A stretch of DNA of 64,000 nucleotides from an uncultured Acidobacteriota bacterium (GTDB taxonomy: Bacteria > Acidobacteriota > UBA6911). The DNA lies in contig CAWJKZ010000015.1 of the NCBI GenBank assembly GCA_963843575.1, positions 32,001 through 96,000 of the forward strand, given 5' to 3'. Of the stretch, positions 1,656-53,023 are shown in pieces; position 1 is the stretch's first letter; each line of letters begins with the position of its first letter. The notes under the pieces are model-generated. The model ran no database searches, was not told the DNA's origin, and saw only the letters and a program-made list of their open reading frames with translations. The position numbers and the translations under genes were made by a program.

Positions 1656-2648
1656 TCAGGTTTGGAGATCCGAATCCTGACTGCCTCGCCGGCTATACTC
1701 GCGAACATTCTGGGCTTTCCACAACAGGCCAGGGTGAGAACGAATAATCGCCTGCAAGTCGGGATCTTGCGTCAACAGCCCCGTTACGATTTCACCTTTG
1801 TCATTTAAGGTCGAAAGAAATTCCATTTCACAGCTGGTCAGCGGCAGGACTGCGGACAGGAGCCGGCGACACTCCATCACGAGATTCTCGCTCCATGGAC
1901 GGACATCGGCGCGTTTCGGGGCCTGCTCGGATTGAAGCATGGGCAGAAGCTGCTGCGCCACAGCATTGCCGTCAGCCCGGAGATCGTCGACCGATACCTT
2001 TCGCCAATCCCGGCGGCTTATCCCCCCATATACAACGAAAGCGAGTCGCAGCCGTGCTTTGTCGAGCTGAACCTCACGCAATAGGCGGCACGTATCGAAC
2101 AGATCTCGGGGAGCGCTCCTGTCGAAGAGGGCTGCGAGCTTGCCGGCAGCCAGTTCATGCACATCCAGCAGCGGCACTCTCATCGCGCGCAAGGAGCCGA
2201 TGGGATGCGAATCCATGAGTACGGGAGGCCAGAGCGGAGTGCGCAACAGGAAGTTGATATCGAGTTCAAGCGAACCCGGGTGCCCCCATGCGCTCACATA
2301 GGTCAGGAGCCATTTCCCGCCGGCATGCTCGCTCGGAGCTCGCCTGACTTGCATTCCGACTCGGCTGCAAACCGCCTGCACCGATTGCTCGACCTTCGGC
2401 CGCTCGCTGAGCATGGTCTCACGATCCTCGGACCCGATGTAATTGAGGTCGATATCAATGGACAAGCGGGGCACCTGAAGCACGAATAAATTGAGTGCCG
2501 TGCCGCCTTTCAGCGCAATCCGCTCCTTGAGGAAAGGATGGCTGCGCAGGGATTCGAGCAGCTCGAAGAGGGCGAGCGTCTTCTCCAGCGATTCGGCATG
2601 AAATCCTGATGCCGCAGCCTCGCCTAGCAGGTCATCTAAAGAGAGCAT
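1656..2648 (-). CDS. abiEii: AbiEii/AbiGii-family nucleotidyltransferase toxin (type IV TA)
   Basis: LKGGTALNLF...RLSIDIDL and KLAALFDRSAPRDLFD motifs. ATG at 2648 overlaps the antitoxin stop (ATGA). Confidence 0.9.
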   Translation of the reverse strand: MLSLDDLLGEAAASGFHAESLEKTLALFELLESLRSHPFLKERIALKGGTALNLFVLQVPRLSIDIDLNYIGSEDRETMLSERPKVEQSVQAVCSRVGMQVRRAPSEHAGGKWLLTYVSAWGHPGSLELDINFLLRTPLWPPVLMDSHPIGSLRAMRVPLLDVHELAAGKLAALFDRSAPRDLFDTCRLLREVQLDKARLRLAFVVYGGISRRDWRKVSVDDLRADGNAVAQQLLPMLQSEQAPKRADVRPWSENLVMECRRLLSAVLPLTSCEMEFLSTLNDKGEIVTGLLTQDPDLQAIIRSHPGLLWKAQNVREYSRRGSQDSDLQT

Positions 2649-3448
2649 CAGACGGTCTCCTCCCAACGGCGACTCAGCACATATTCTGGAATGATCAGAT
2701 TCCACGGCCGGACCAGTTTACCGGCTTTGCGGCTGCCATCGAGGTACCGCGGTTGTGTTGGAGCCAGCTCCCGGAGCGCTTCGAGATGCTTGTCCTCCAC
2801 CATTAGACTCTCGCGATGCCGCTCCAGAAAGAAACCGACGCGTGCCGCCGATATCGCGGAACCCAGCGCCCGGACATGTGAGATCACGGCATCGAGATCG
2901 AAGAATTCGACCATTTCAAGCGAACGCCAGAGTTCTTCCCAGCCGCCGCCCTTATCCGGTTCATCGAGAACATCGACAAGGGTCCGTTCCAGGGTGGTCA
3001 CCCGCACCCGGCCGCCCACGTGCCGTACCTCCCTAACTCCTTTGGCCTCGTCCGGAAGGGATTGGAGCGCCGACGAGACTTGGACCGGAACAAACTCGAG
3101 GTCACGAAATGAAAAGGGTCGCGCCCGCATGGCGGTAAGGTAGTGAAATCGTTTCCACACCGAGTAGGCCTTCCCGAAGAACTGAAGAGCGGCGTGGTAG
3201 GCGACCACCGCGTCATCCGTAACCTTCGAAGCCACCAGGTATGGATCCAGACTGGAGCCGATGCCCTCAGCACGACGTGGAACGGCGGCGTACAGACCCC
3301 GCCGCACCCTGAGAAGACGGCCCGATGCGAGGTGCCTGGCAAGCAGATTATTGCTGGTCCGCGGGCTCCTGCCCGAGGCCGTGTGTGCTGCCAGGTACTC
3401 GGCATGTCTGAATACCGGATGAGCCTCAAAGAAATCGACCGATCGCAT
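2648..3448 (-). CDS. abiEi: AbiEi-family antitoxin / transcriptional regulator
   Basis: wHTH-like LLRVRRGLY, then VVAYHAALQFFG and VTTLERTLVDVLD motifs. Coupled to the downstream toxin. Confidence 0.88.
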   Translation of the reverse strand: MRSVDFFEAHPVFRHAEYLAAHTASGRSPRTSNNLLARHLASGRLLRVRRGLYAAVPRRAEGIGSSLDPYLVASKVTDDAVVAYHAALQFFGKAYSVWKRFHYLTAMRARPFSFRDLEFVPVQVSSALQSLPDEAKGVREVRHVGGRVRVTTLERTLVDVLDEPDKGGGWEELWRSLEMVEFFDLDAVISHVRALGSAISAARVGFFLERHRESLMVEDKHLEALRELAPTQPRYLDGSRKAGKLVRPWNLIIPEYVLSRRWEETV

Positions 3449-5065: not shown

Positions 5066-7914
5066 ATGCTCGATCCGGTGACCGACCGCCCTCGACCGAA
5101 CGATCCGGTGGCACCAGCGCGCGGCAATGCCCTGGCCGACGCCTGGCGCCTGAGCGCGGACGACGTGCTGCGGCGCCTGGCGGTCGATCGGGTCGCGGGT
5201 CTTGGTGCGTCCGAAGCGGCGGCGCGTCTCGAGACGACCGGCGCCAACGAACTGACGGAACGGGCCGGGCGCGGCCGACTCGCCATCGTGCGCGAGCAGT
5301 TGATCAACGTCATGACCTTCATCCTCCTCGCCGCCGTGGTCCTCTCGGTCACGCTCGGAGACTGGATCGAAGCCGTCGTCATCCTCGCCATCGTGGTCCT
5401 CAACGCGATCCTTGGCTTCACGCAGGAGTACCGCGCCGAACAGTCGATGGCCGCGCTCAAGCGGATGTCGGTCCCGACGGTGCGGGTCCGGCGCGATGGC
5501 GCAGGTGCAGGAGATCTCATCGCGCGACCTCGTGCCCGGCGACATCGCGCTCCTGGAGACCGGAAACGTCGTACCGGCCGACGGCCGAGTCCTCGAGAGC
5601 GTCAACCTGCGCGCCCAGGAGTCGGCGCTCACGGGCGAATCGGAGGCGGTGGAGAAGGACGGGGCGCTCGTCTTCGAGGCGGAGAGGCCGCTGGCCGAGC
5701 GGCGCAACATGGTCTACGCCGGAACCATCGTCACTTACGGCCGCGGCGAGATCGTCGTGACCGCCACCGGCATGGGCACCGAGCTGGGGAAGATCGCGGG
5801 CCTGCTCCAGTCGGTGGAGGAGGAGAAGACCCCCCTCCAGGGGCGGCTCGATCGCCTGGGCAGGGGACTGGCCATAGCGGCGGGGGTGCTGGTCGCGGTC
5901 GTCTTCCTCCTGGGAATCCGGAAGGCAGAGTCGCGCGAACAGGTCCTGGAGGTGCTCCTGACCGCCGTGAGCCTCGCCGTCGCGGCAATACCGGAGGCGA
6001 TGACGGCGGTCGTCACCATCGCCCTCTCCCTGGGCGCGCAGCGCATGCTCAAGCGCAAGGCGCTGATCCGGAAACTGCCGGCGGTCGAGACGCTCGGCTC
6101 GGTCAGCGTCATCTGCTCGGACAAGACGGGAACCCTGACCCAGAACCGGATGACGGTGACGGCGATCGACGTCGCCAACCGGCGAATCGACCTCGTCCAG
6201 CGGGAGGATGGGGGGCGATTGACGCTGAGGCGCGCCGGCTCCGCCGAAGGGGGGGCGCTGGCCTCGACCCTCGACCTGCTCTTGGTGGGCGGCGCGCTCT
6301 GCAACGATGCCGTTCTCGTCCAGGAGGAGGCGCCGGCCGGCGGCTGCCACGCCGTGGGCGACCCGACCGAGGGAGCGCTGGTCCTGGCCGCGGCGGAGTA
6401 CGGCATCCGCAAGGACGACCTCGACAGGGCCCTGCCGCGGGTGGCCGAGCTCCAGTTCGACTCCGTGCGGAAACGGATGACGACGGTGCACCGCATGCCG
6501 GCCGAGGACGTGGAGGTCCCCGGTGCGTTGCGGTCGCTCTGGGCCCGGCGGAGCCAGGCCGTCGAGACGCCCGACTTCCTCGCAGTGACGAAGGGGGCCG
6601 TCGACGGGCTCCTGACGCAGACCCGGCACCTCTGGGTCGAGGGAGCGCTCGCGCCGCTCGACGAGGACGGGCGCCGCCGCGTGATGGCGGCGCACGACGA
6701 CCTCGCGGCGAAGGGGATGCGCGTCCTGGGCGTGGCGGTTCGCCCACTCGAGCATCCTCCGATCGGACCTGAGCTGGACGGACTGGAGACCGACCTGACG
6801 CTCGTCGGGCTCTTCGGCCTGCTCGACCCGGCCCGCCCCGAGGTCGCGGACGCGGTGGCCCGGTGCCGTGCGGCCGGCATCCGCCCCGTCATGATCACGG
6901 GCGACCACCCGCTGACGGCGCGTCACATCGCGAAGCAGGTCGGCATCACCGAGAGCGAGGAGTTCCTGACCGGGCAGGAGCTCGACCGGCTCACCGACGC
7001 CGAGCTGCGCGACCGGGTGAACGGCGTGTCGGTCTTCGCCCGCGTCTCGCCGGAGCACAAGATCCGGCTCGTCACGAGTCTCCAGGAGCAGGGCCTCGTC
7101 GTGGCGATGACCGGGGACGGCGTCAACGACGCGCCCGCGCTCCGCAAGGCGGACATCGGCGTGGCGATGGGCATCACGGGAACCGACGTCTCCAAGGACG
7201 CGGCCGACGATGGTCCTCCTCGACGACAACTTCGCCACGATCGTGGCGGCCGTCGAGGAAGGCCGGAAGATCTACGACAACATTCGGAAGTTCATCAAGT
7301 ACCTCCTGAGCTGCAACGCCAGCGAGATCGCCGTCATGCTGCTGGCGCCGCTCCTCGGCATGCCGCTACCCCTGCTTCCACTCCAGATCCTCTGGATGAA
7401 TCTGGTGACGGACGGCCTACCGGCCCTGGCCCTCGGCGTGGAGCCGGCCGAAGAGAACATCATGAAGCGCCCTCCCTACTCGTCGGAGGAGAGCATCTTC
7501 GGGCGAGGCCTCGTGGGGTTCGTCGTCGTGATGGGCATCGTGATGAGTCTGATCTCGCTCGGCATCGGCGCCTGGGCGTTCCGCAGCGGCGACCCGGCCT
7601 GGCAGACGCTCCTCTTCACGACCTTGATCTTCTCGCAGGTGATCCTGGCTCTCGAGGTGCGCTCCGAGCGGAGATCGATCTTCCGCATCGGGCTGTTCAC
7701 CAATCCGCTGATGGTCGTGGCGTTTCTCTCGACGGTCGGCCTGCAGGTGGCGGTCGTCTACCTGCCGTTCCTGCAGAAGGTCTTCTCGACCTCCCCGCTC
7801 GGTGCGCGCGACCTCTTGATCGCCTTCGGATCCGGCCTTGCCGTGCTGGCCGCCGTCGAACCCTGGAAGTGGGCGCTGCGCCGGACGACGACGGCCTCCC
7901 GCCGCACCGTGTGA
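5066..7914 (+). CDS. Cation-translocating P-type ATPase (Ca2+/type II-like), two frameshifts (~5500, ~7208)
   Basis: TGES, DKTGTLT, MITGDH and TGDGVNDAPAL motifs spread over three overlapping ORFs (5066, 5412, 7210). Confidence 0.92.
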
Positions 7915-8103
7915 GCGCAGTGAACAGGCTCGAAAGGCACTGCACCGAATGTGCCCGCGCCCAACGCTCGTGGCCGCATTCTGGAAACAAGCGACTCTCA
8001 GCGTCACTATATTATGCGGGACTCAATAATTCGCGGCACTTGCATCCATTTTCCCTTGTGTAGTATCCGTAGTTTTGATCTATGCTCGACATGTGGAAGG
8101 CCT

Positions 8104-26991: not shown

Positions 26992-27849
26992 CTAGCGACC
27001 GCAAAAAGCGTCCGGGCTGCTCTCCGTCGAACTCCGGCGGATCACCTGGCTCAACGGGGTGTACACGACGCGGAAGCCCAGCCGGTGTATGGGGCTGAGG
27101 GGGTCCCGGAGGCCGGCACGAACAAAAAAGGCGGGAAGGTCCCATCCGCCCCCGCGCACCGGGTGGTGGGTGGATCCGGTCCCTTCCCAGGCGCTCCCGT
27201 CCGTCGGCGCTCCCTTATAATCGGGATGCCAGGTGTCCTGGCACCACTCCGGCACGTTGCCCAGCATGTCATAGAGCCCGAAGGCATTGGGCTGCTTCAC
27301 ACCCACGGGGTGGGTGGTGCCGCCCGCGTTCTCCGCAGCCCACGCGATCGCGTCCACCGGGCCGTAGGTCTCCTCCTTGCCGCCTGCCCGGCAGCCATAC
27401 TCCCACTCGGCCTCGCTGGGAAGACGGTAGCGCCGGCCCGGTTCGAGGGCGTTCAGCTTCCGGATGAACGCCTGAGCTTCCTGCCAGCTGACCCCTTCCA
27501 CGGGAGCATCGGGGCCTGCCTGACGAAAGTGGGATGGGTTGCCGCCCATTAAGGCCTGCCACTGTGCCTGGGTAACCTCGGTCACTGCCATCCAGAAGCC
27601 CGGCACGTCCACGCGGTGGACCGGCTGCTCCGCTGCGCGAACGGTGGAACCCATTTCGAAGCTGCCTGCAGGGATCTCGACGAATCGCATCCCGATGCTG
27701 TTGCAGACCGGGGCGGCCGCGACCCTGTTTCCGGCTCCGACGCGCTGGTCTTCGTGCGGGCCGAAGGGCGAGCGGGCGAAAACGCGTGGCGGTTGAGTGC
27801 AGGCCAGTAGCATGACGAGGACGACGCGGGTGGTTCTCTTGGCAACCAT
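26992..27849 (-). CDS. Secreted formylglycine-generating enzyme (SUMF1/FGE-sulfatase) domain protein
   Basis: IPAGSFEMGS, TEVTQAQW, RLPSEAEWEY, NAFGLYDMLGNV.EW, RGGGW, LGFR. Confidence 0.9.
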   Translation of the reverse strand: MVAKRTTRVVLVMLLACTQPPRVFARSPFGPHEDQRVGAGNRVAAAPVCNSIGMRFVEIPAGSFEMGSTVRAAEQPVHRVDVPGFWMAVTEVTQAQWQALMGGNPSHFRQAGPDAPVEGVSWQEAQAFIRKLNALEPGRRYRLPSEAEWEYGCRAGGKEETYGPVDAIAWAAENAGGTTHPVGVKQPNAFGLYDMLGNVPEWCQDTWHPDYKGAPTDGSAWEGTGSTHHPVRGGGWDLPAFFVRAGLRDPLSPIHRLGFRVVYTPLSQVIRRSSTESSPDAFCGR

Positions 27850-37921: not shown

Positions 37922-38416
37922 TGTGCAACCCTCCTTCTCATGATTCCGGGCAAGAGGATCCCGCGTTGGTCAACTGCGGTTCGCGACGACATTTCTCCGG
38001 CAGCGCCGCACCAATTCTTCGAAAGCGCCCGTGTGTCAACCTCAAGCGCCGGCCGCGCGTTCCGCACCAGATCCTCGTCCGGTCAGATCAGTTCACGGCA
38101 TCTCCAGACAGACACGGATGGTCACATTTTCACACTTGCGGATTGCGGCTCCGATGCTACACCATGGGCTTCCCCCCCCACAACAGCTGGCTCCCCTGGC
38201 TCTGCGATTCAGACACTGGGAGCCGCCCGTTGGGTCCCGGCTCAGGTTTTGGCAGGTCCGGCTGGTGAGTTTTTCATCACAGGAGCGACTTGTCCTCTTT
38301 GGGAAATCGAAAGGACACGGCTTCTTGTGATGTTGACGGACACCTCGGCGAGATCCTGGGGTTCGTATCGGCGGGAAAAGTTGGCGGAGTTTCCTTGCGG
38401 ATAATTACGAGAGCAA

Positions 38417-38726
38417 TCAAGGTGCCCGGACAAGTTTGAGCTCTTGTTCGAGATCTCGTCTGAGCCTTCTGATCTTTTCGAGGATTTTCGTGCCGGCGTC
38501 TGCCGAGAGCGTCGGCAGAAGCTCGGTATGCTCCGCAGGGGTGAACAGAGCAAAGCGATTGCGGATCACGTACGGATACGCATGAAAACTGTGAACTCCG
38601 TGCAGTCGCATGGACAGATTGCTCGCCACGTACATCCATAGCGGCACCTCTTCCTTCTCGCGTGGCGAAGGATAGGTTTCGGCCAGCTTCCCCAGCACCT
38701 TCTTCGCTCCGATGTAACGGAAGAAC
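38417..38726 (-). pseudogene. Transposase remnant: N-terminal segment fused to a probable C-terminal tail
   Basis: 38561-38726 matches 41546-41711 (166 bp, 4 mismatches). It continues as NRFALFTPAEHTELL...RRDLEQELKLVRAP* toward the TIR. Confidence 0.7.
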
Positions 38727-38974
38727 GCTCCACTGGATTCCGAAGCCATATCGGGTTTTCGCGGACCACGACTTGCAAAAACCAGTCGAGCCTGCCGTGT
38801 TATAGTGGCGCGTGTTTCCTGCCGCAATTCCCCGGTGACAGGAGCATGCGATTGTTTTACCTCTTTGGTTTCGGGTTCATAAATTCGATCCGGCATGGCA
38901 CTGCGGCTTGTGTGATGCGCCGGCGCCGAATCCTCAGGTTCTATGTTAGATAGCGCAGGCACGGGAGCAACTCG

Positions 38975-41161
38975 ATGTACTGCATACACTGTGGCTCGGA
39001 AAATCCCGACGTAGGAAATTTCTGCTCCAAATGCGGAAAGACCATGACCTCCACGCCGAGCCGAGCGCAAGGCGCCTCGGCCATGGATTTTGCCGAAACC
39101 GAGCTGGGTCTCTCTGCCGGGTATACCCTTGCGGGCCGCTACCGTATCGCGAGGGAGATCGGCAGCGGTGGGATGGGGCGGGTGTACCTCGGCCAGGATG
39201 GAAAGCTGAACAATATGCCGGTGGCCATTAAGGTTTTGCGAGACATGCTTAGCCGCGACGGCGGCTCGGTAAAGCGGCTCATCGTCGAAGCGCAACTTTC
39301 CATGCAGCTTTCTCACCCGAACGTCATCCGGGTGCACAATTTCGAAGATGATGGATTCACGAAGTTTCTGGTGATGGAGTATGTCGAGGGGGAGACGCTC
39401 AAGGATCGGATCGATCGCGAGAGCCGGCTTGCGGAGAGCGAGACGCGGCGCCTGGGAGCTGAAATCTGCAAGGGACTCGAGCACGCGCACGCGAAGAAAG
39501 TGATCCACCGCGATTTGAAACCAGGCAACATCCTGCTTGGGAAAGACGGTTCGGTGAAAATCGCGGACTTCGGAATTGCGCGGGTCTGCCGGGACTCGAT
39601 GTCACGGCTGACTTCACAGATGGATTCCGGGACGCTGCTGTACATGTCGCCGGAGCAGCTGGACGGGGAGAGTACGGAGGCGAGCGACGTGTATTCGCTG
39701 GGGGTTGTGCTGTATGAAATGCTAAGCGGGGATCCGCCCTTTCGAACCGGTGACATAGCCGGTCAGATCCGCACGAAGCAGCCAAAGTCGTTGGAGAATG
39801 TATCCGAGGAATTCAATACCCTGGTATCACGCTGTCTTGCGAAAAATGCGGCAGACCGTTTTACGAATGTCCGTGACCTGATGGAAGAACTTTCGGGGAG
39901 AGGCGAAGAGCGGCGAAAGGAGGCCGCCCGGCTTGCCGCCAAAATCGATGAGTTCAAGCGTCGAGGCACTCGGGCCTTCGATGACGGCAACTACTCTGAA
40001 GCGATTACGCAGTGGGCGGCTGCACTGGCACTAAAGCCGGAAGACCGGACATTAAACGAAGCCATCGATCGGGCGCGAAGAAAGAAAGTCGATGCAGAAA
40101 GAGCGGAAGCCGAGAGCCGGCGGGTCGAAGCTGAAAAAGTTGCCACGCTCCAAGAGCTGGAGAATGAACGTCAGCAGCGGCTCGTGGCAGCCAAGGACCA
40201 AGGCGAAACAGCCTTTCAGCAGGGGCAGTATGAGGCGGCAATCCAGCACTGGAATGCGGCGCTGGAGATTTCTCCGGGCAATACATGGATCAGCGAGGCG
40301 ATTGAGCGAGCCGCTGGTCGATTAGCGCAGCAGCAGGAGGCGCCACGCCGCTCATCTCCGGCGCCAATACCGACTAAGGGCGGTGTTGGCAATCAGATTA
40401 TCTTTGTCGCCCTGGGTGTACTACTAACCGTCGCTGTTGTCTGGATTTACCAGAACGCGACCCGGGATAGCGCTGCGGTCAAATCGCCGAGCGGCACCAA
40501 CAGCCTTGGTATGGTCTTTGTTCAGATTCCGGCGGGCTCGTTTGAAATGGGTTCGAATTCTGGTGATTCGGATGAGAAGCCGGTCCATCGGGTAACGATA
40601 AGCCGGGACTTTCAGATGCAGGCAACGGAGGTAACGCAGGGGCAGTGGGAATCGGTGATGGGAAGCAACCCAAGTAATTTCAAGAACTGCGGGAAGGATT
40701 GCCCTGTGGAGAGCGTGAGCTGGAATGAGGTCAAGGAATACATACGGAGGCTGAACGGGCGCAATGACGGGTGGGAGTATCGGTTGCCGACGGAGGCAGA
40801 ATGGGAGTATGCCTGCCGGGCGGGGACGACGGGGGATTATGCAGGGAATCTGGACAGCATGGGATGGTATGGTCCTAATTCGGGGAACACTACCCATCCA
40901 GTGGGGAAGAAAGAGAAGAACCGCTGGGGTTTGTATGACACGCACGGGAATGTATGGGAATGGGTAGAGGATTGGTACGGTCCTTATACTTCAGGGTCGG
41001 CTACTGATCCCAAGGGGCCATCCTCAGGCTCGGGCCGGGTGGACCGCGGCGGCAGCTGGTACGGCGTCGCCGGGGGCTGCCGGTCGGCCGATCGTAGCTA
41101 CGACTCGCCCGGCGACCGCAACGGCAGCCTCGGCTTCCGCCTTGTGGGGACGGCCCGCTGA
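38975..41161 (+). CDS. Zn-ribbon - Ser/Thr kinase - TPR - TM - FGE-sulfatase (CLec-fold) protein; putative DGR target
   Basis: CIHCG..FCSKCG; IGSGGMGRVY, VAIK, HRDLKPGN, DFG, YMSPE; TPR-like helices; TM IIFVALGVLLTVAVVWIY; RLPTEAEWEYACRAG; C-terminal RVDRGGSW...CRSA.R....P..R...LGFRL. Confidence 0.93.
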   Translation: MYCIHCGSENPDVGNFCSKCGKTMTSTPSRAQGASAMDFAETELGLSAGYTLAGRYRIAREIGSGGMGRVYLGQDGKLNNMPVAIKVLRDMLSRDGGSVKRLIVEAQLSMQLSHPNVIRVHNFEDDGFTKFLVMEYVEGETLKDRIDRESRLAESETRRLGAEICKGLEHAHAKKVIHRDLKPGNILLGKDGSVKIADFGIARVCRDSMSRLTSQMDSGTLLYMSPEQLDGESTEASDVYSLGVVLYEMLSGDPPFRTGDIAGQIRTKQPKSLENVSEEFNTLVSRCLAKNAADRFTNVRDLMEELSGRGEERRKEAARLAAKIDEFKRRGTRAFDDGNYSEAITQWAAALALKPEDRTLNEAIDRARRKKVDAERAEAESRRVEAEKVATLQELENERQQRLVAAKDQGETAFQQGQYEAAIQHWNAALEISPGNTWISEAIERAAGRLAQQQEAPRRSSPAPIPTKGGVGNQIIFVALGVLLTVAVVWIYQNATRDSAAVKSPSGTNSLGMVFVQIPAGSFEMGSNSGDSDEKPVHRVTISRDFQMQATEVTQGQWESVMGSNPSNFKNCGKDCPVESVSWNEVKEYIRRLNGRNDGWEYRLPTEAEWEYACRAGTTGDYAGNLDSMGWYGPNSGNTTHPVGKKEKNRWGLYDTHGNVWEWVEDWYGPYTSGSATDPKGPSSGSGRVDRGGSWYGVAGGCRSADRSYDSPGDRNGSLGFRLVGTAR
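41027..41150 (+). other. Putative DGR variable region (VR) and IMH
   Basis: All 14 codons at positions that are Asn in typical FGE-type template repeats are NNC/NNT (GGC, GAC, TAC, GGC, GTC, GGC, GAT, AGC, TAC, GAC, GAC, AAC, GGC, AGC). Local shift to very high GC. Confidence 0.75.
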
Positions 41162-41202
41162 CGCTTTGCTCTTTTACCCTTTTACCCTTGGCATTTTCAA
41201 GG

Positions 41203-50560: not shown

Positions 50561-53023
50561 CTATTCGCAGCGCAGCGCGACGACGGGGTCGACCCGGCTC
50601 GCCCGTTGAGCCGGGAACCACACGGCGGCAAGGGCGACGGCCGCCAGCAGGATCGGGATTCCGACAAACACCGTGCGGTCCCACGCGCCGACGCCGAACA
50701 GGAAGCCGGACAGCAACCGGGTCAGCCCGAACGCCGAGGCGAGCCCGAGGGCGATCCCCGCCCCGGCCAGGATCATCCCCTGCCGAACGACCATCCTCCT
50801 GACGGTCGTCGAGCCCGCCCCCATGGCGATGCGGATCCCGATCTCGCGGGTCCGCTGCTGGACCGAGAACGCGATCAGTCCGTAGACCCCGATCGCGGCG
50901 AGCAGGAGAGCGGAACCGCCGAAGATCGACATGAGCAACATGTTGAACCGTTCGCGCGAGGTGGAGAGCGAGACGATCTCGCTCATGCTCTGGATGTCGG
51001 ACACCGGCAGCCCGGTAGCCTGGCGCAGCTGCTCCTGGACTTTGGCGCTGAGCGAGTAGGGATCCATTCGGGTGCGGACGACCCACGCCATCGGGGAGAT
51101 TCCGACGTTCAAGGCATTCGCGGCGTCGGGAACCTGCGCCTGCGGGATGAACATGGTCGGCGCGGGCTCGTTGTTGAGCCCGCCGTCGCGGCTGTCTGCG
51201 ACGACGCCGATGATCTGGCGCGGCTGCTCGTCGGCGAATTCCCTCATGACGCCTTTGCCGATCAGTAGCCGGTCGTTCAGCGGATCGCCGTCCTTCCAGT
51301 ACTGCCGGGCCATGGTCTCGTTGATGACGACGACCCGGGGCGCCAGGCTGTCGTCGCGCTCGGTGAACGCCCGGCCCCGTTTGACCGGGATCTTGAACAC
51401 GTCGAAGTAGCCCGGCGACGCGGTCGTCCAGCCGCCGCCGCCGTGGAAGGGCCCGTCCTGCAGCGGCCGGCCGACGATGACGAAGGGGAGTCCGTAGCCG
51501 CCCTGCAGCGGCACGCAGCACGTCGCGCTCGCCGCTTCCACGCCGGGCAGCGCCCTCATCCGCTCAACCCCGTCGCGGATGATCTGGTCCACCGCAGCCG
51601 ACTTGGCGAAACGCGGGCCGGTGAGCGACATGCGCATCGTCAGGACGTTTCGGGCGTCGAAGCCGGGATCGACCGAGCGCAGCGCGACGAAGGTCCGGAT
51701 CAGCAGCGCGGACCCGACCAGCAACACCAGCGCAAGGGCCACCTCAGCGACGACCAGGATGGAGCGCGTCTTGTTGTGCCGGAACCCGGTGCCCGAGCGC
51801 CCGCCCCCTTCCTTGAGCGTCGTGCTCAGGTCAGGGCGCGACCCCTGCAGCGCCGGGATCAGCCCGAACAGCAGCCCGGTCCCCACCGAGAGGAGGGCGG
51901 CGAAACCGGCCACCCGCCAGTCCAGCCCGACCAGGGAACCATCCGGGCCCAGCCGCGGGAGGTCAGCCGTGTTTATGGCCAGGAGAGCCTTGATGCCCGC
52001 CAGCCCGAGGATCAGGCCCAATGCGCCCCCCGCGACCGACAGCACCACGCTTTCGGCCAGCAGCTGGCGGACGATGGATGCCCGGCCGGCCCCGATGGCC
52101 GCCCGGATGGCGATCTCGTGGCTGCGTCGCGTGGCGCGCACGAGCAGCAGGTTGGCCACGTTCGCGCACGCGATCAGCAGCACGCACCCCACCGCCCCCG
52201 CCATCACCCACAACGTCGGGCGCACGTTGGCTACAACCGCCTCCTGCAACGGCGTAACGGTAAACCCGTTGTTCGCCCCGAGCCCGTTCGGGAACTTCTT
52301 CCGGTATGTCTCGGTCGAGACCTGTAGCAGCGCCCGGGCCTTCCCGAGCGCGATCCCGGGTTTCAACCGGCCAGCCACCCTGAAGTAATGTCCCTGGTCG
52401 GTGCTTTCGGGATCGAGCTGGAAGGGAAGCCACACCTCCGGCGACGGGCCGAACTCCTCCGCCTTGAATCCCGGCTCCACGACCCCGATCACGACGTACG
52501 GCTCGCCGCTCAGCAGGATCGTCCGGCCGAGCACTTCCGGATCGGCGGCGAAGCGCCGCACCCAGAGGCCGTGGCTGAGCACGATCGTCTTTTCCCCGCC
52601 AGGGCGGTCCTCCTCCGCGGAGAAGCTGCGACCCCGGAGGATCGACGCCCCGAAAAGACGGAAGTAGTCCGCGCTCACCTGACCGCTGCGGAGCTGTTCG
52701 GGGAACGTTCCACCCGTGTAGTTGACGATGCCGTCCCGAAACGCGGAGACGTACTCGAAGGCTGCCGACTGTTGACGCCAGTGAGCGAATTTCGCCGGCG
52801 AGGCGGCGGAAGACGTGCCGCGAGGCCCCGTGTTCATGAACATCACGAGGCTGTCGGGTTTGGGGAACGGGATCGGTTTGAGCAGCACCGCGTTCACGAC
52901 CGAAAAGATCGCCGTGTTCGCCCCGATGCCCAGGGCGAAGGCCGCCACCGCAGCGAAGGAAAAGCCGGGTGCCTTGCGGAATTGCCGTAGCGCGTGCCTG
53001 AGGTCCCTCAGCCAATTCTCCAT
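50561..53023 (-). CDS. ADOP-type ABC transporter permease (MacB/FtsX duplicated)
   Basis: DLRHALRQ..K.PGF...ALGIGANTAIFSVVNAVLL, LLIACANVANLLL, EIGIR.AMGA, PA.RASRVDP..ALR.E. Confidence 0.95.
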   Translation of the reverse strand: MENWLRDLRHALRQFRKAPGFSFAAVAAFALGIGANTAIFSVVNAVLLKPIPFPKPDSLVMFMNTGPRGTSSAASPAKFAHWRQQSAAFEYVSAFRDGIVNYTGGTFPEQLRSGQVSADYFRLFGASILRGRSFSAEEDRPGGEKTIVLSHGLWVRRFAADPEVLGRTILLSGEPYVVIGVVEPGFKAEEFGPSPEVWLPFQLDPESTDQGHYFRVAGRLKPGIALGKARALLQVSTETYRKKFPNGLGANNGFTVTPLQEAVVANVRPTLWVMAGAVGCVLLIACANVANLLLVRATRRSHEIAIRAAIGAGRASIVRQLLAESVVLSVAGGALGLILGLAGIKALLAINTADLPRLGPDGSLVGLDWRVAGFAALLSVGTGLLFGLIPALQGSRPDLSTTLKEGGGRSGTGFRHNKTRSILVVAEVALALVLLVGSALLIRTFVALRSVDPGFDARNVLTMRMSLTGPRFAKSAAVDQIIRDGVERMRALPGVEAASATCCVPLQGGYGLPFVIVGRPLQDGPFHGGGGWTTASPGYFDVFKIPVKRGRAFTERDDSLAPRVVVINETMARQYWKDGDPLNDRLLIGKGVMREFADEQPRQIIGVVADSRDGGLNNEPAPTMFIPQAQVPDAANALNVGISPMAWVVRTRMDPYSLSAKVQEQLRQATGLPVSDIQSMSEIVSLSTSRERFNMLLMSIFGGSALLLAAIGVYGLIAFSVQQRTREIGIRIAMGAGSTTVRRMVVRQGMILAGAGIALGLASAFGLTRLLSGFLFGVGAWDRTVFVGIPILLAAVALAAVWFPAQRASRVDPVVALRCE

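Follow-up and report, generated by a model that had tools for sequence, protein, structure and literature searches.

Does the 3′ end of a receptor-like kinase gene in an uncultured Acidobacteriota bacterium (GTDB lineage Bacteria; Acidobacteriota; UBA6911) represent the variable region (VR) of a diversity-generating retroelement (DGR), and could it still be rewritten today? The question is raised by a stretch of 64,000 nucleotides (assembly GCA_963843575.1, contig CAWJKZ010000015.1, positions 32,001 to 96,000 of the forward strand), hereafter called the window, to which all coordinates refer unless another locus is named. At 38975..41161 (+), it carries an open reading frame (ORF) for a 728-residue protein in which a Ser/Thr kinase is joined to a domain of the formylglycine-generating enzyme (FGE) family. 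A sequence-only reading of this DNA had proposed that the C-terminus of this protein is diversified by a DGR. Our analysis leads to a more restricted answer: with a probability of about 0.8, the tail of the kinase gene is a genuine DGR variable region that was orphaned from its cassette by capture in a now decayed transposon.

The segment 41027..41161 (+) encodes GSGRVDRGGSWYGVAGGCRSADRSYDSPGDRNGSLGFRLVGTAR followed by a stop codon and forms the 3′ end of the kinase-FGE ORF, so that both the peptide and its coordinates had been given exactly by the sequence-only reading. Its 44 codons have a GC content of 0.78 (0.93 at third codon positions), a cytosine frequency at third positions (C3) of 0.68 and an adenine content of 0.09, compared with a GC content of 0.556, a C3 of 0.20 and an adenine content of 0.246 in the 184 FGE codons directly upstream. 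The higher GC content that had been noticed in this segment is therefore real. The VR is the most extreme 44-codon window in the gene, and the break falls exactly at 41027. Synonymous usage also flips at this boundary, since GGC accounts for 9 of the 11 glycine codons in the VR and for 2 of the 22 upstream of it (Fisher p 6.7e-5). At its other end, the scaffold of the VR finishes with CTTGTG (41146). The window contains a second FGE-sulfatase protein of 285 aa (26992-27849, minus strand) with a hydrophobic N-terminus and the tail RGGGW..., and its gene, which shows neither nucleotide similarity to the VR nor a break in composition, served as a within-genome negative control.

The original argument for mutagenesis was that 14 non-scaffold codons of the VR all end in C or T, as expected if they had been derived from AAC or AAT. 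Thirteen of these sites were spelled out in the inferred template repeat (TR) of the sequence-only reading (codons 3, 6, 12-14, 17, 22, 24-26 and 32-34, counted from GGC TCG), and the fourteenth was assumed to be codon 30, which falls in the elided stretch of that inferred repeat. In order, the codons at the 14 sites are GGC, GAC, TAC, GGC, GTC, GGC, GAT, AGC, TAC, GAC, GAC, AAC, GGC and AGC, so that the claim is borne out (14/14). Given the gene-wide frequency of C- or T-ending codons of 0.473, the chance of this outcome is 0.473^14 = 2.8e-5, and it rises to 0.002 when the frequency among the other codons of the segment (18/28) is used instead. The caveat attached to the original observation, that C-ending codons are common in a GC-rich genome, is justified for this statistic and does not hold for the composition break, which is the stronger of the two signals.

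Relatives of the VR were sought by scanning a genome contig collection with a pattern of 31 fixed bases taken from its scaffold. Four loci were recovered, of which three belong to one metagenome-assembled genome of Sumerlaeia and one to Nitrospinota. The three Sumerlaeia carriers are otherwise unrelated proteins encoded on three contigs, namely a Big_12-FGE protein of 463 aa (L001 8726-10117), an FGE protein of 309 aa (L002 5901-6830) and a KAP NTPase-FGE protein of 776 aa (L003 7787-10117), and their genes share the VR scaffold within one 3′ end of about 150 nt that runs beyond the stop codon. Their VRs differ in 28 of 135 columns; codon position 1 accounts for 15 of these and position 2 for the other 13, so that position 3 is invariant, a pattern that marks them as apparent targets of one DGR. 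Neither a TR nor a reverse transcriptase (RT) was found on the retrieved stretches of the three contigs. The kinase VR has the same length as the Sumerlaeia VRs (44 codons to the stop) and is identical to them at 42 of the 58 invariant scaffold positions that lie outside the 31 pattern bases. At the 16 codons that vary in Sumerlaeia, the kinase VR ends in C or T in 15 cases, compared with 18 of 28 elsewhere in the segment. The fourth locus is a Nitrospinota FGE gene of 281 aa (L004 2477-3322) that shares the 31 scaffold bases. Its tail, in which the GC content jumps from 0.49 to 0.64, may be another orphan or remote VR.

A search of a plasmid collection with the VR by blastn gave a single match, the 3′ end of an FGE-family gene on plasmid pPAES01 of Prosthecochloris aestuarii DSM 271 (NC_011061.1). 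This plasmid carries a DGR in the order FGE target, HRDC domain protein, DGR protein Avd, RNA-directed DNA polymerase, TR and second FGE-family target. The TR lies just after the RT gene (L005 8204-8305) and was located together with two VRs (regions L005 5970-6180 and 9597-9813). As a control, the two plasmid VRs were compared with their own TR: VR1 matches at 76 of 76 non-adenine sites and at 13 of 23 adenine sites, and VR2 at 75 of 76 and 9 of 23. The kinase VR matches this heterologous TR at 60 of the 76 non-adenine sites and at 7 of the 23 adenine sites (Fisher p 3e-5). Furthermore, the 3′ end of the VR, GGCTTCCGCCTTGTG, is identical in the kinase gene and in both pPAES01 VRs. These alignments show the kinase VR to be homologous, codon for codon, to the VRs of both Sumerlaeia and pPAES01. 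The relationship extends to the protein: over 230 aa, the FGE domain of the kinase gene shares 58% identity with the second pPAES01 target, a value close to the 62% of its best match among 5.8 billion proteins.

The two comparisons also bear on the template that the sequence-only reading had inferred. Its AAC, AAT and AGG codons are placed as in the real pPAES01 TR (codons 3, 6, 12, 13, 16, 17, 22 and 32-34), and its mutable sites coincide with those that vary among the three Sumerlaeia VRs. The 16 Sumerlaeia-variable sites and the adenines of the pPAES01 TR are both definitions independent of that reading, and they agree. The pPAES01 TR itself lacks 24-30 nt that are present in both of its VRs, between ...AATCGC and AACAACAAT..., and the annotated DGR of this plasmid may have lost the ability to rewrite the VR over its full length.

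Sequences that follow the VR are shared as well. The motif TTTTACCCTTTTACCCTTG (41172..41190, plus strand), which contains TTTTACC, is also found just after both pPAES01 VRs, and its single occurrence in the window compares with 0.01 expected; a function for it is presumed. Further downstream, a long, GC-rich imperfect hairpin is predicted at 41204..41279 (+). The DNA fold of 41130-41340 has an energy of -52.6 kcal/mol (z -3.7), and the pPAES01 flank folds less convincingly (z -1.8). According to this folding model, the hairpin may be a target-recognition structure or a terminator. A promoter and terminator scan of 38600-41600 found nothing exceeding the shuffled expectation, and two miRNA-precursor matches obtained with Rfam on 38000-42600 were rejected as spurious, being far below the gathering score and reflecting the hairpin shape.

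Behind the hairpin, the window retains the beginning of a DGR accessory gene. A stub ORF of about 51 codons (41365..41515, plus strand) starts with TTG at 41365, 204 nt beyond the kinase-FGE stop codon, and shares 53% identity over 36 aa (E 2e-12) with the N-terminal part of the HRDC protein from pPAES01. When that protein was compared with the window by tblastn, its residues 4-42 were the only part to match, and its HRDC domain (residues 85-149) remained unmatched. An exhaustive phmmer search with the 60-aa stub returned 97 proteins at E <= 0.001, nearly all of them small; with few exceptions, it is their N-terminal residues (~2-50) that align, to stub residues ~3-51, and none continues past stub residue 51. 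Among the 38 longest of these relatives (one protein of 1403 aa excluded), 15 carry a Pfam HRDC domain at residues ~82-152, the part that is missing from the stub. In the set of 5.8 billion proteins, a search of the stub for longer proteins gave no match at E 0.001, which is weak evidence since a match of 36 aa cannot reach this threshold, and NCBIfam and Pfam at lax thresholds gave nothing for the stub or for the insertion sequence (IS) fragments described below. HRDC accessory genes characterize a minority DGR architecture, typified by Treponema and represented by 14 of 372 DGRs (PMC5758913; PMC4891356).

The reason why the accessory gene ends abruptly became apparent from its surroundings. 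The kinase-FGE gene lies within an element of 4170 bp whose ends are marked by inverted repeats of 28 bp and by a target duplication of 10 bp, and whose neighbours are an aquaporin gene on one side and a DUF937 gene on the other. The left terminal inverted repeat (38202..38229) is complementary to the right one (42344..42371) at 28 of 28 positions, and the left target-site duplication TCCCCTGGCT (38192..38201) agrees with the right copy (42372..42381) at 10 of 10. A tblastn search with P0220, a DDE_Tnp_1 transposase of about 556 aa (PF01609), placed its residues 1-100 at 41815->41516, its residues 36-90 at 38725->38561 (98% identity) and its residues 513-559 at 38560->38420 (83%). The right-hand piece is thus an N-terminal transposase fragment (41516..41815, minus strand, within the ORF 41480-41815) with 98% identity to P0220, and the left-hand piece is a remnant (38420..38725, minus strand) with a 5′ truncation and an internal deletion that fuses residues 36-90 to residues 513-559. 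Residues 101-512 are absent, residues 36-90 are present twice, and no intact transposase gene is left. A direct repeat of 166 nt (38561-38726 and 41546-41711, 162/166 identical) corresponds to the stretch of transposase sequence kept in both fragments. The right arm also includes a DUF6788 gene that is part of the IS (41821..42252, minus strand; PF20586, E 7.1e-14).

The captured segment between the transposase pieces (38727..41515, GC 0.58) comprises the target gene with its VR, the spacer and the HRDC stub. At its right junction (41515/41516), codon ~51 of the HRDC gene is joined to codon 100 of the transposase, and its left junction lies at 38726/38727. Inside the element, the GC content is 0.55-0.58, compared with 0.63 on both flanks. 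A search for relatives of the transposase recovered 390 proteins, of which many are encoded on contigs of 2.3-2.7 kb and a single one is labelled Acidobacteria; this family search superseded an ESM Atlas comparison of the IS ORF, whose scores of 0.86-0.89 were leads only. The IS right arm and the DUF6788 protein had no match in the plasmid collection. The element is non-autonomous, and its movement would need a full-length transposase copy in trans. A composite transposon (IS-cargo-IS) that lost the inner halves of its two ISs provides the most economical history, in which the order of events is deduced. This history accounts for the duplication of transposase codons 36-90, although other routes to it, such as recombination with a circular intermediate, may be conceived. 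A match of 21 nt (81%, inverted) between 38544-38564 and the region of the kinase stop codon was judged to be due to chance.

The machinery that should accompany a complete DGR was then sought throughout the 64 kb. No TR came to light: with blastn at word size 7, no match longer than 34 nt was found, and an adenine-tolerant sliding scan gave a best non-self placement with 41 of 120 mismatches unexplained by adenines. The 34-nt match itself (82%, 51411-51444) falls in a MacB-type permease gene and was dismissed as chance. No RVT Pfam match was obtained among 116 ORFs (44 greedy and 72 further ORFs of at least 170 aa), which together with the kinase ORF cover all 109 six-frame ORFs of this length; with the RT of pPAES01 as the query, tblastn reached a best E of 0.051. 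The same ORFs gave no Pfam match for Avd, for which tblastn with the pPAES01 protein had a best E of 0.19.

The protein encoded by the target gene has the organization of a membrane receptor. An N-terminal zinc ribbon is followed by the Ser/Thr kinase domain (residues 56-299, 39140-39871, plus strand; Pfam Pkinase 5.6e-56), whose Hanks-type motifs GSGGMG, AIK, HRDLKPGN, DFG and SPE are complete (residues 63, 84, 178, 198 and 225). TPR repeats are found between the kinase domain and the FGE-sulfatase domain of C-type lectin (CLec) fold, which spans residues 515-724 (40517-41146, plus strand; Pfam FGE-sulfatase 5.7e-44). The single transmembrane (TM) helix that had been claimed is seen in the hydropathy profile as the one strong hydrophobic segment, at residues 475-492 (40397-40450, plus strand). 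Because there is no second hydrophobic segment, the kinase is predicted to be cytoplasmic and the FGE domain to lie outside, in a single-pass, receptor-like topology.

Among solved structures, the FGE domain is nearest to TvpA, the DGR variable protein of Treponema denticola (2Y3C, E 1.6e-35), and the fold is assigned from this match, whose alignment spans the whole VR; true FGEs reach E ~6e-21 in the same sequence search. The active site of the true enzyme, in human and bacterial FGE alike, has a catalytic cysteine pair. The aligned tail of the kinase protein contains a single cysteine (GGCRSA). No close orthologues were found among the 5.8 billion proteins searched, in which the best identity of the FGE domain is 62% among 7996 scored relatives and the kinase-FGE protein is alone in its own cluster (a singleton).

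Combined, these results suggest the following course of events. A DGR reverse transcriptase would have made errors in copying the adenines of a template repeat, mostly in AAC and AAT codons, and by mutagenic retrohoming the cDNA would have replaced the 3′ end of the kinase-FGE gene at some time in the past. The part so diversified would be the ligand-binding face of the external, TvpA-like FGE/CLec domain. The ancestral order was probably target, spacer and HRDC accessory gene, followed by Avd, RT and TR, as on pPAES01. What the window preserves of it is the target, the spacer and the initial ~51 HRDC codons, fused to the fragments of the DDE transposase in the 4170-bp element, and the composite transposon would have inserted, or have been inserted already, between the aquaporin and DUF937 genes. 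Capture of the gene by the transposon would have severed the VR from its retroelement and left it an orphan. We infer that the VR was mutagenized in the past and no longer changes today, unless it is served in trans by a matching DGR at another site. The proposal of a DGR-diversifiable ligand site on a receptor kinase accordingly stands in part: the VR sequence and its context agree with it, but diversification in the present does not follow, given that TR, RT and Avd are missing from the window, the HRDC gene is cut and the gene is transposon cargo.

Several observations weigh against this history. Neither a cognate TR nor an RT was seen, which leaves the locus without both of the parts that define a DGR. 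The adenine-site evidence comes from heterologous references; in particular, the adenine-site test used a foreign TR, and positions that vary freely in the fold would pass it too. Part of the match between the kinase VR and Sumerlaeia was imposed by the search pattern. A blastn search (distant) of a phage collection with the VR gave no match, and there is no RT on the 5-kb contig of the Nitrospinota gene. Finally, the C-terminus of the non-DGR FGE gene at 26992-27849 (minus strand) is also rich in C/T-ending codons and poor in A (third-position pyrimidines 0.72, A 0.10). The last point, together with a scaffold (RGGSW...CRSA.R...P..R...GFR) that is intrinsic to the fold, would fit an ordinary FGE C-terminus with no DGR history, whose content of Gly, Arg, Pro and Ser and whose codon bias produce both the C/T-ending codons and the high GC content. 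However, the flip in synonymous codon usage at the boundary does not agree with such an origin; moreover, the nucleotide-level relatives of the segment are DGR VRs, its mismatches to a real TR cluster at adenines and an HRDC accessory stub lies directly downstream in the canonical order. An ordinary FGE tail is thus barely credible.

A more serious rival accepts the VR and disputes its isolation. The kinase gene may still be an active remote target, which the transposon would merely have moved and which a complete DGR with a matching TR, located in the same genome beyond the 64 kb, would diversify in trans. Non-phage DGRs are documented to have targets that lie over 100 kb away from their RT, with avd, TR and RT acting in trans (PMC5758913); the Sumerlaeia targets likewise occupy three contigs with no RT or TR nearby. 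The VR keeps an intact scaffold and 3′ end, the motif and the hairpin that follow it are intact as well, and the composition boundary is still sharp, which argues against a long decay. On the other hand, the segment is cut within the accessory gene and was carried in as cargo, so that the DGR from which it came may belong to some other genome; the GC content of the element departs from that of its flanks, and the absence of TR, RT and Avd from the 64 kb tells against ongoing activity too. On balance, we consider present activity unlikely. An assembly chimera, in which the kinase segment and the IS fragments were misjoined via the 166-nt repeat, would instead question the transposon. The IS family is very abundant and is often found on separate contigs of 2.3-2.7 kb, and two further genes of the window are split over frames, suggesting an imperfect sequence. 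Yet the repeat copies are distinguishable (4 of 166 positions differ), both cargo junctions lie inside the transposase coding sequence and not at the repeat edges (the right one is 30 nt past the repeat), and the outer inverted repeats and the 10-bp duplication are perfect. A misassembly is therefore highly improbable and, in any case, irrelevant to whether the tail is a VR.

Capture by the transposon leaves room for one further, rather speculative proposal. The 4.2-kb element could be a portable DGR target, carrying the VR, its boundary and the recognition sequences without the machinery, which a compatible DGR resident in the recipient would diversify in trans. We regard this as distinctly doubtful; if true, insertion sequences would spread "plug-in" hypervariable sensors between genomes.

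Other genes of the window were recorded alongside. A P-type cation ATPase is spread over three frames at 5066-8063 (+), with Cation_ATPase_N at 5066-6769, the E1-E2/hydrolase part at 5412-8063 and Cation_ATPase_C at 7210-7911; its two frameshifts indicate either a pseudogene or assembly indel errors. A Glu/Leu/Phe/Val dehydrogenase at 45804-47079 (minus strand) is divided between overlapping ORFs in different frames, with the N-terminal part at 46534-47079 and the catalytic part at 45804-46754. At 1656-3448 (minus strand), an AbiEii nucleotidyltransferase toxin and an AbiEi-like antitoxin form a type IV toxin-antitoxin or abortive-infection pair.

The case of the orphaned kinase VR is of wider use in three respects. 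It illustrates that a DGR variable region can be recognized from a single sequence without its template, by a codon break, kinship to proven VRs and an accessory stub. It offers a concrete case, resolved at the level of junctions, of a transposon that separated a DGR target from its cassette and carried it along. It also implies that orphan targets of this kind will escape tools that require both RT and TR.

The closest known system is the DGR of pPAES01. In both loci, a gene of the FGE family ends with the VR and has an HRDC-type gene about 200-250 nt downstream on the same strand. In contrast to the kinase locus, the plasmid keeps Avd, RT and TR, and its targets are short and FGE-only; the kinase locus has an accessory gene of only ~51 codons and a kinase-TPR-TM part at the N-terminus of its target. 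An HRDC accessory gene is likewise used by the Treponema DGR, assigned to architecture C by Wu et al. 2018, and T. denticola isolates without RT and TR keep their target genes, which are described as remnants (PMC4891356). The solved chain of TvpA is an FGE-fold protein of 294 residues whose sequence identity to the FGE domain of the kinase gene is moderate. We take TvpA to be a lipoprotein with no kinase domain.

The carrier, for its part, resembles ISs with DDE_Tnp_1 and DUF6788 in its perfect terminal inverted repeats, its target duplication and the passenger DNA between IS-derived ends, and differs from them by having no intact transposase. By its class, it is presumably a mobile insertion cassette (MIC) or a composite transposon.

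Kinase-bearing DGR targets are known from several sources. They form composition b12 in a GenBank survey (Wu et al. 2018, PMC5758913), a Pkinase target is reported from Thiohalocapsa (Dore et al. 2024, PMC10907252), and kinase-CLec proteins are described as the commonest multidomain DGR variable proteins in cyanobacteria (Vallota-Eastman et al. 2020, PMC7517822). The cyanobacterial proteins share with ours an N-terminal Hanks-type kinase and a C-terminal CLec/FGE domain with the VR. However, cyanobacterial variable proteins are mostly predicted to be cytosolic (PMC7517822), whereas the protein described here has a TM helix between the two domains. The cyanobacterial paralogues are dispersed, have varying VR/TR homology and occur near transposases, which were proposed to spread them (PMC7517822). 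The transposon route for the spread of kinase-CLec genes was proposed there only from this proximity; in the present case, the inverted repeats, the target duplication and the junctions together document the capture. The gene described here also differs from the cyanobacterial cases in its GC-rich genome and in IS relatives that are labelled Acidobacteria. Kinase-CLec DGR targets as such are thus already published, and what is particular to this one is its TM topology together with the junction-level record of its capture by a transposon.

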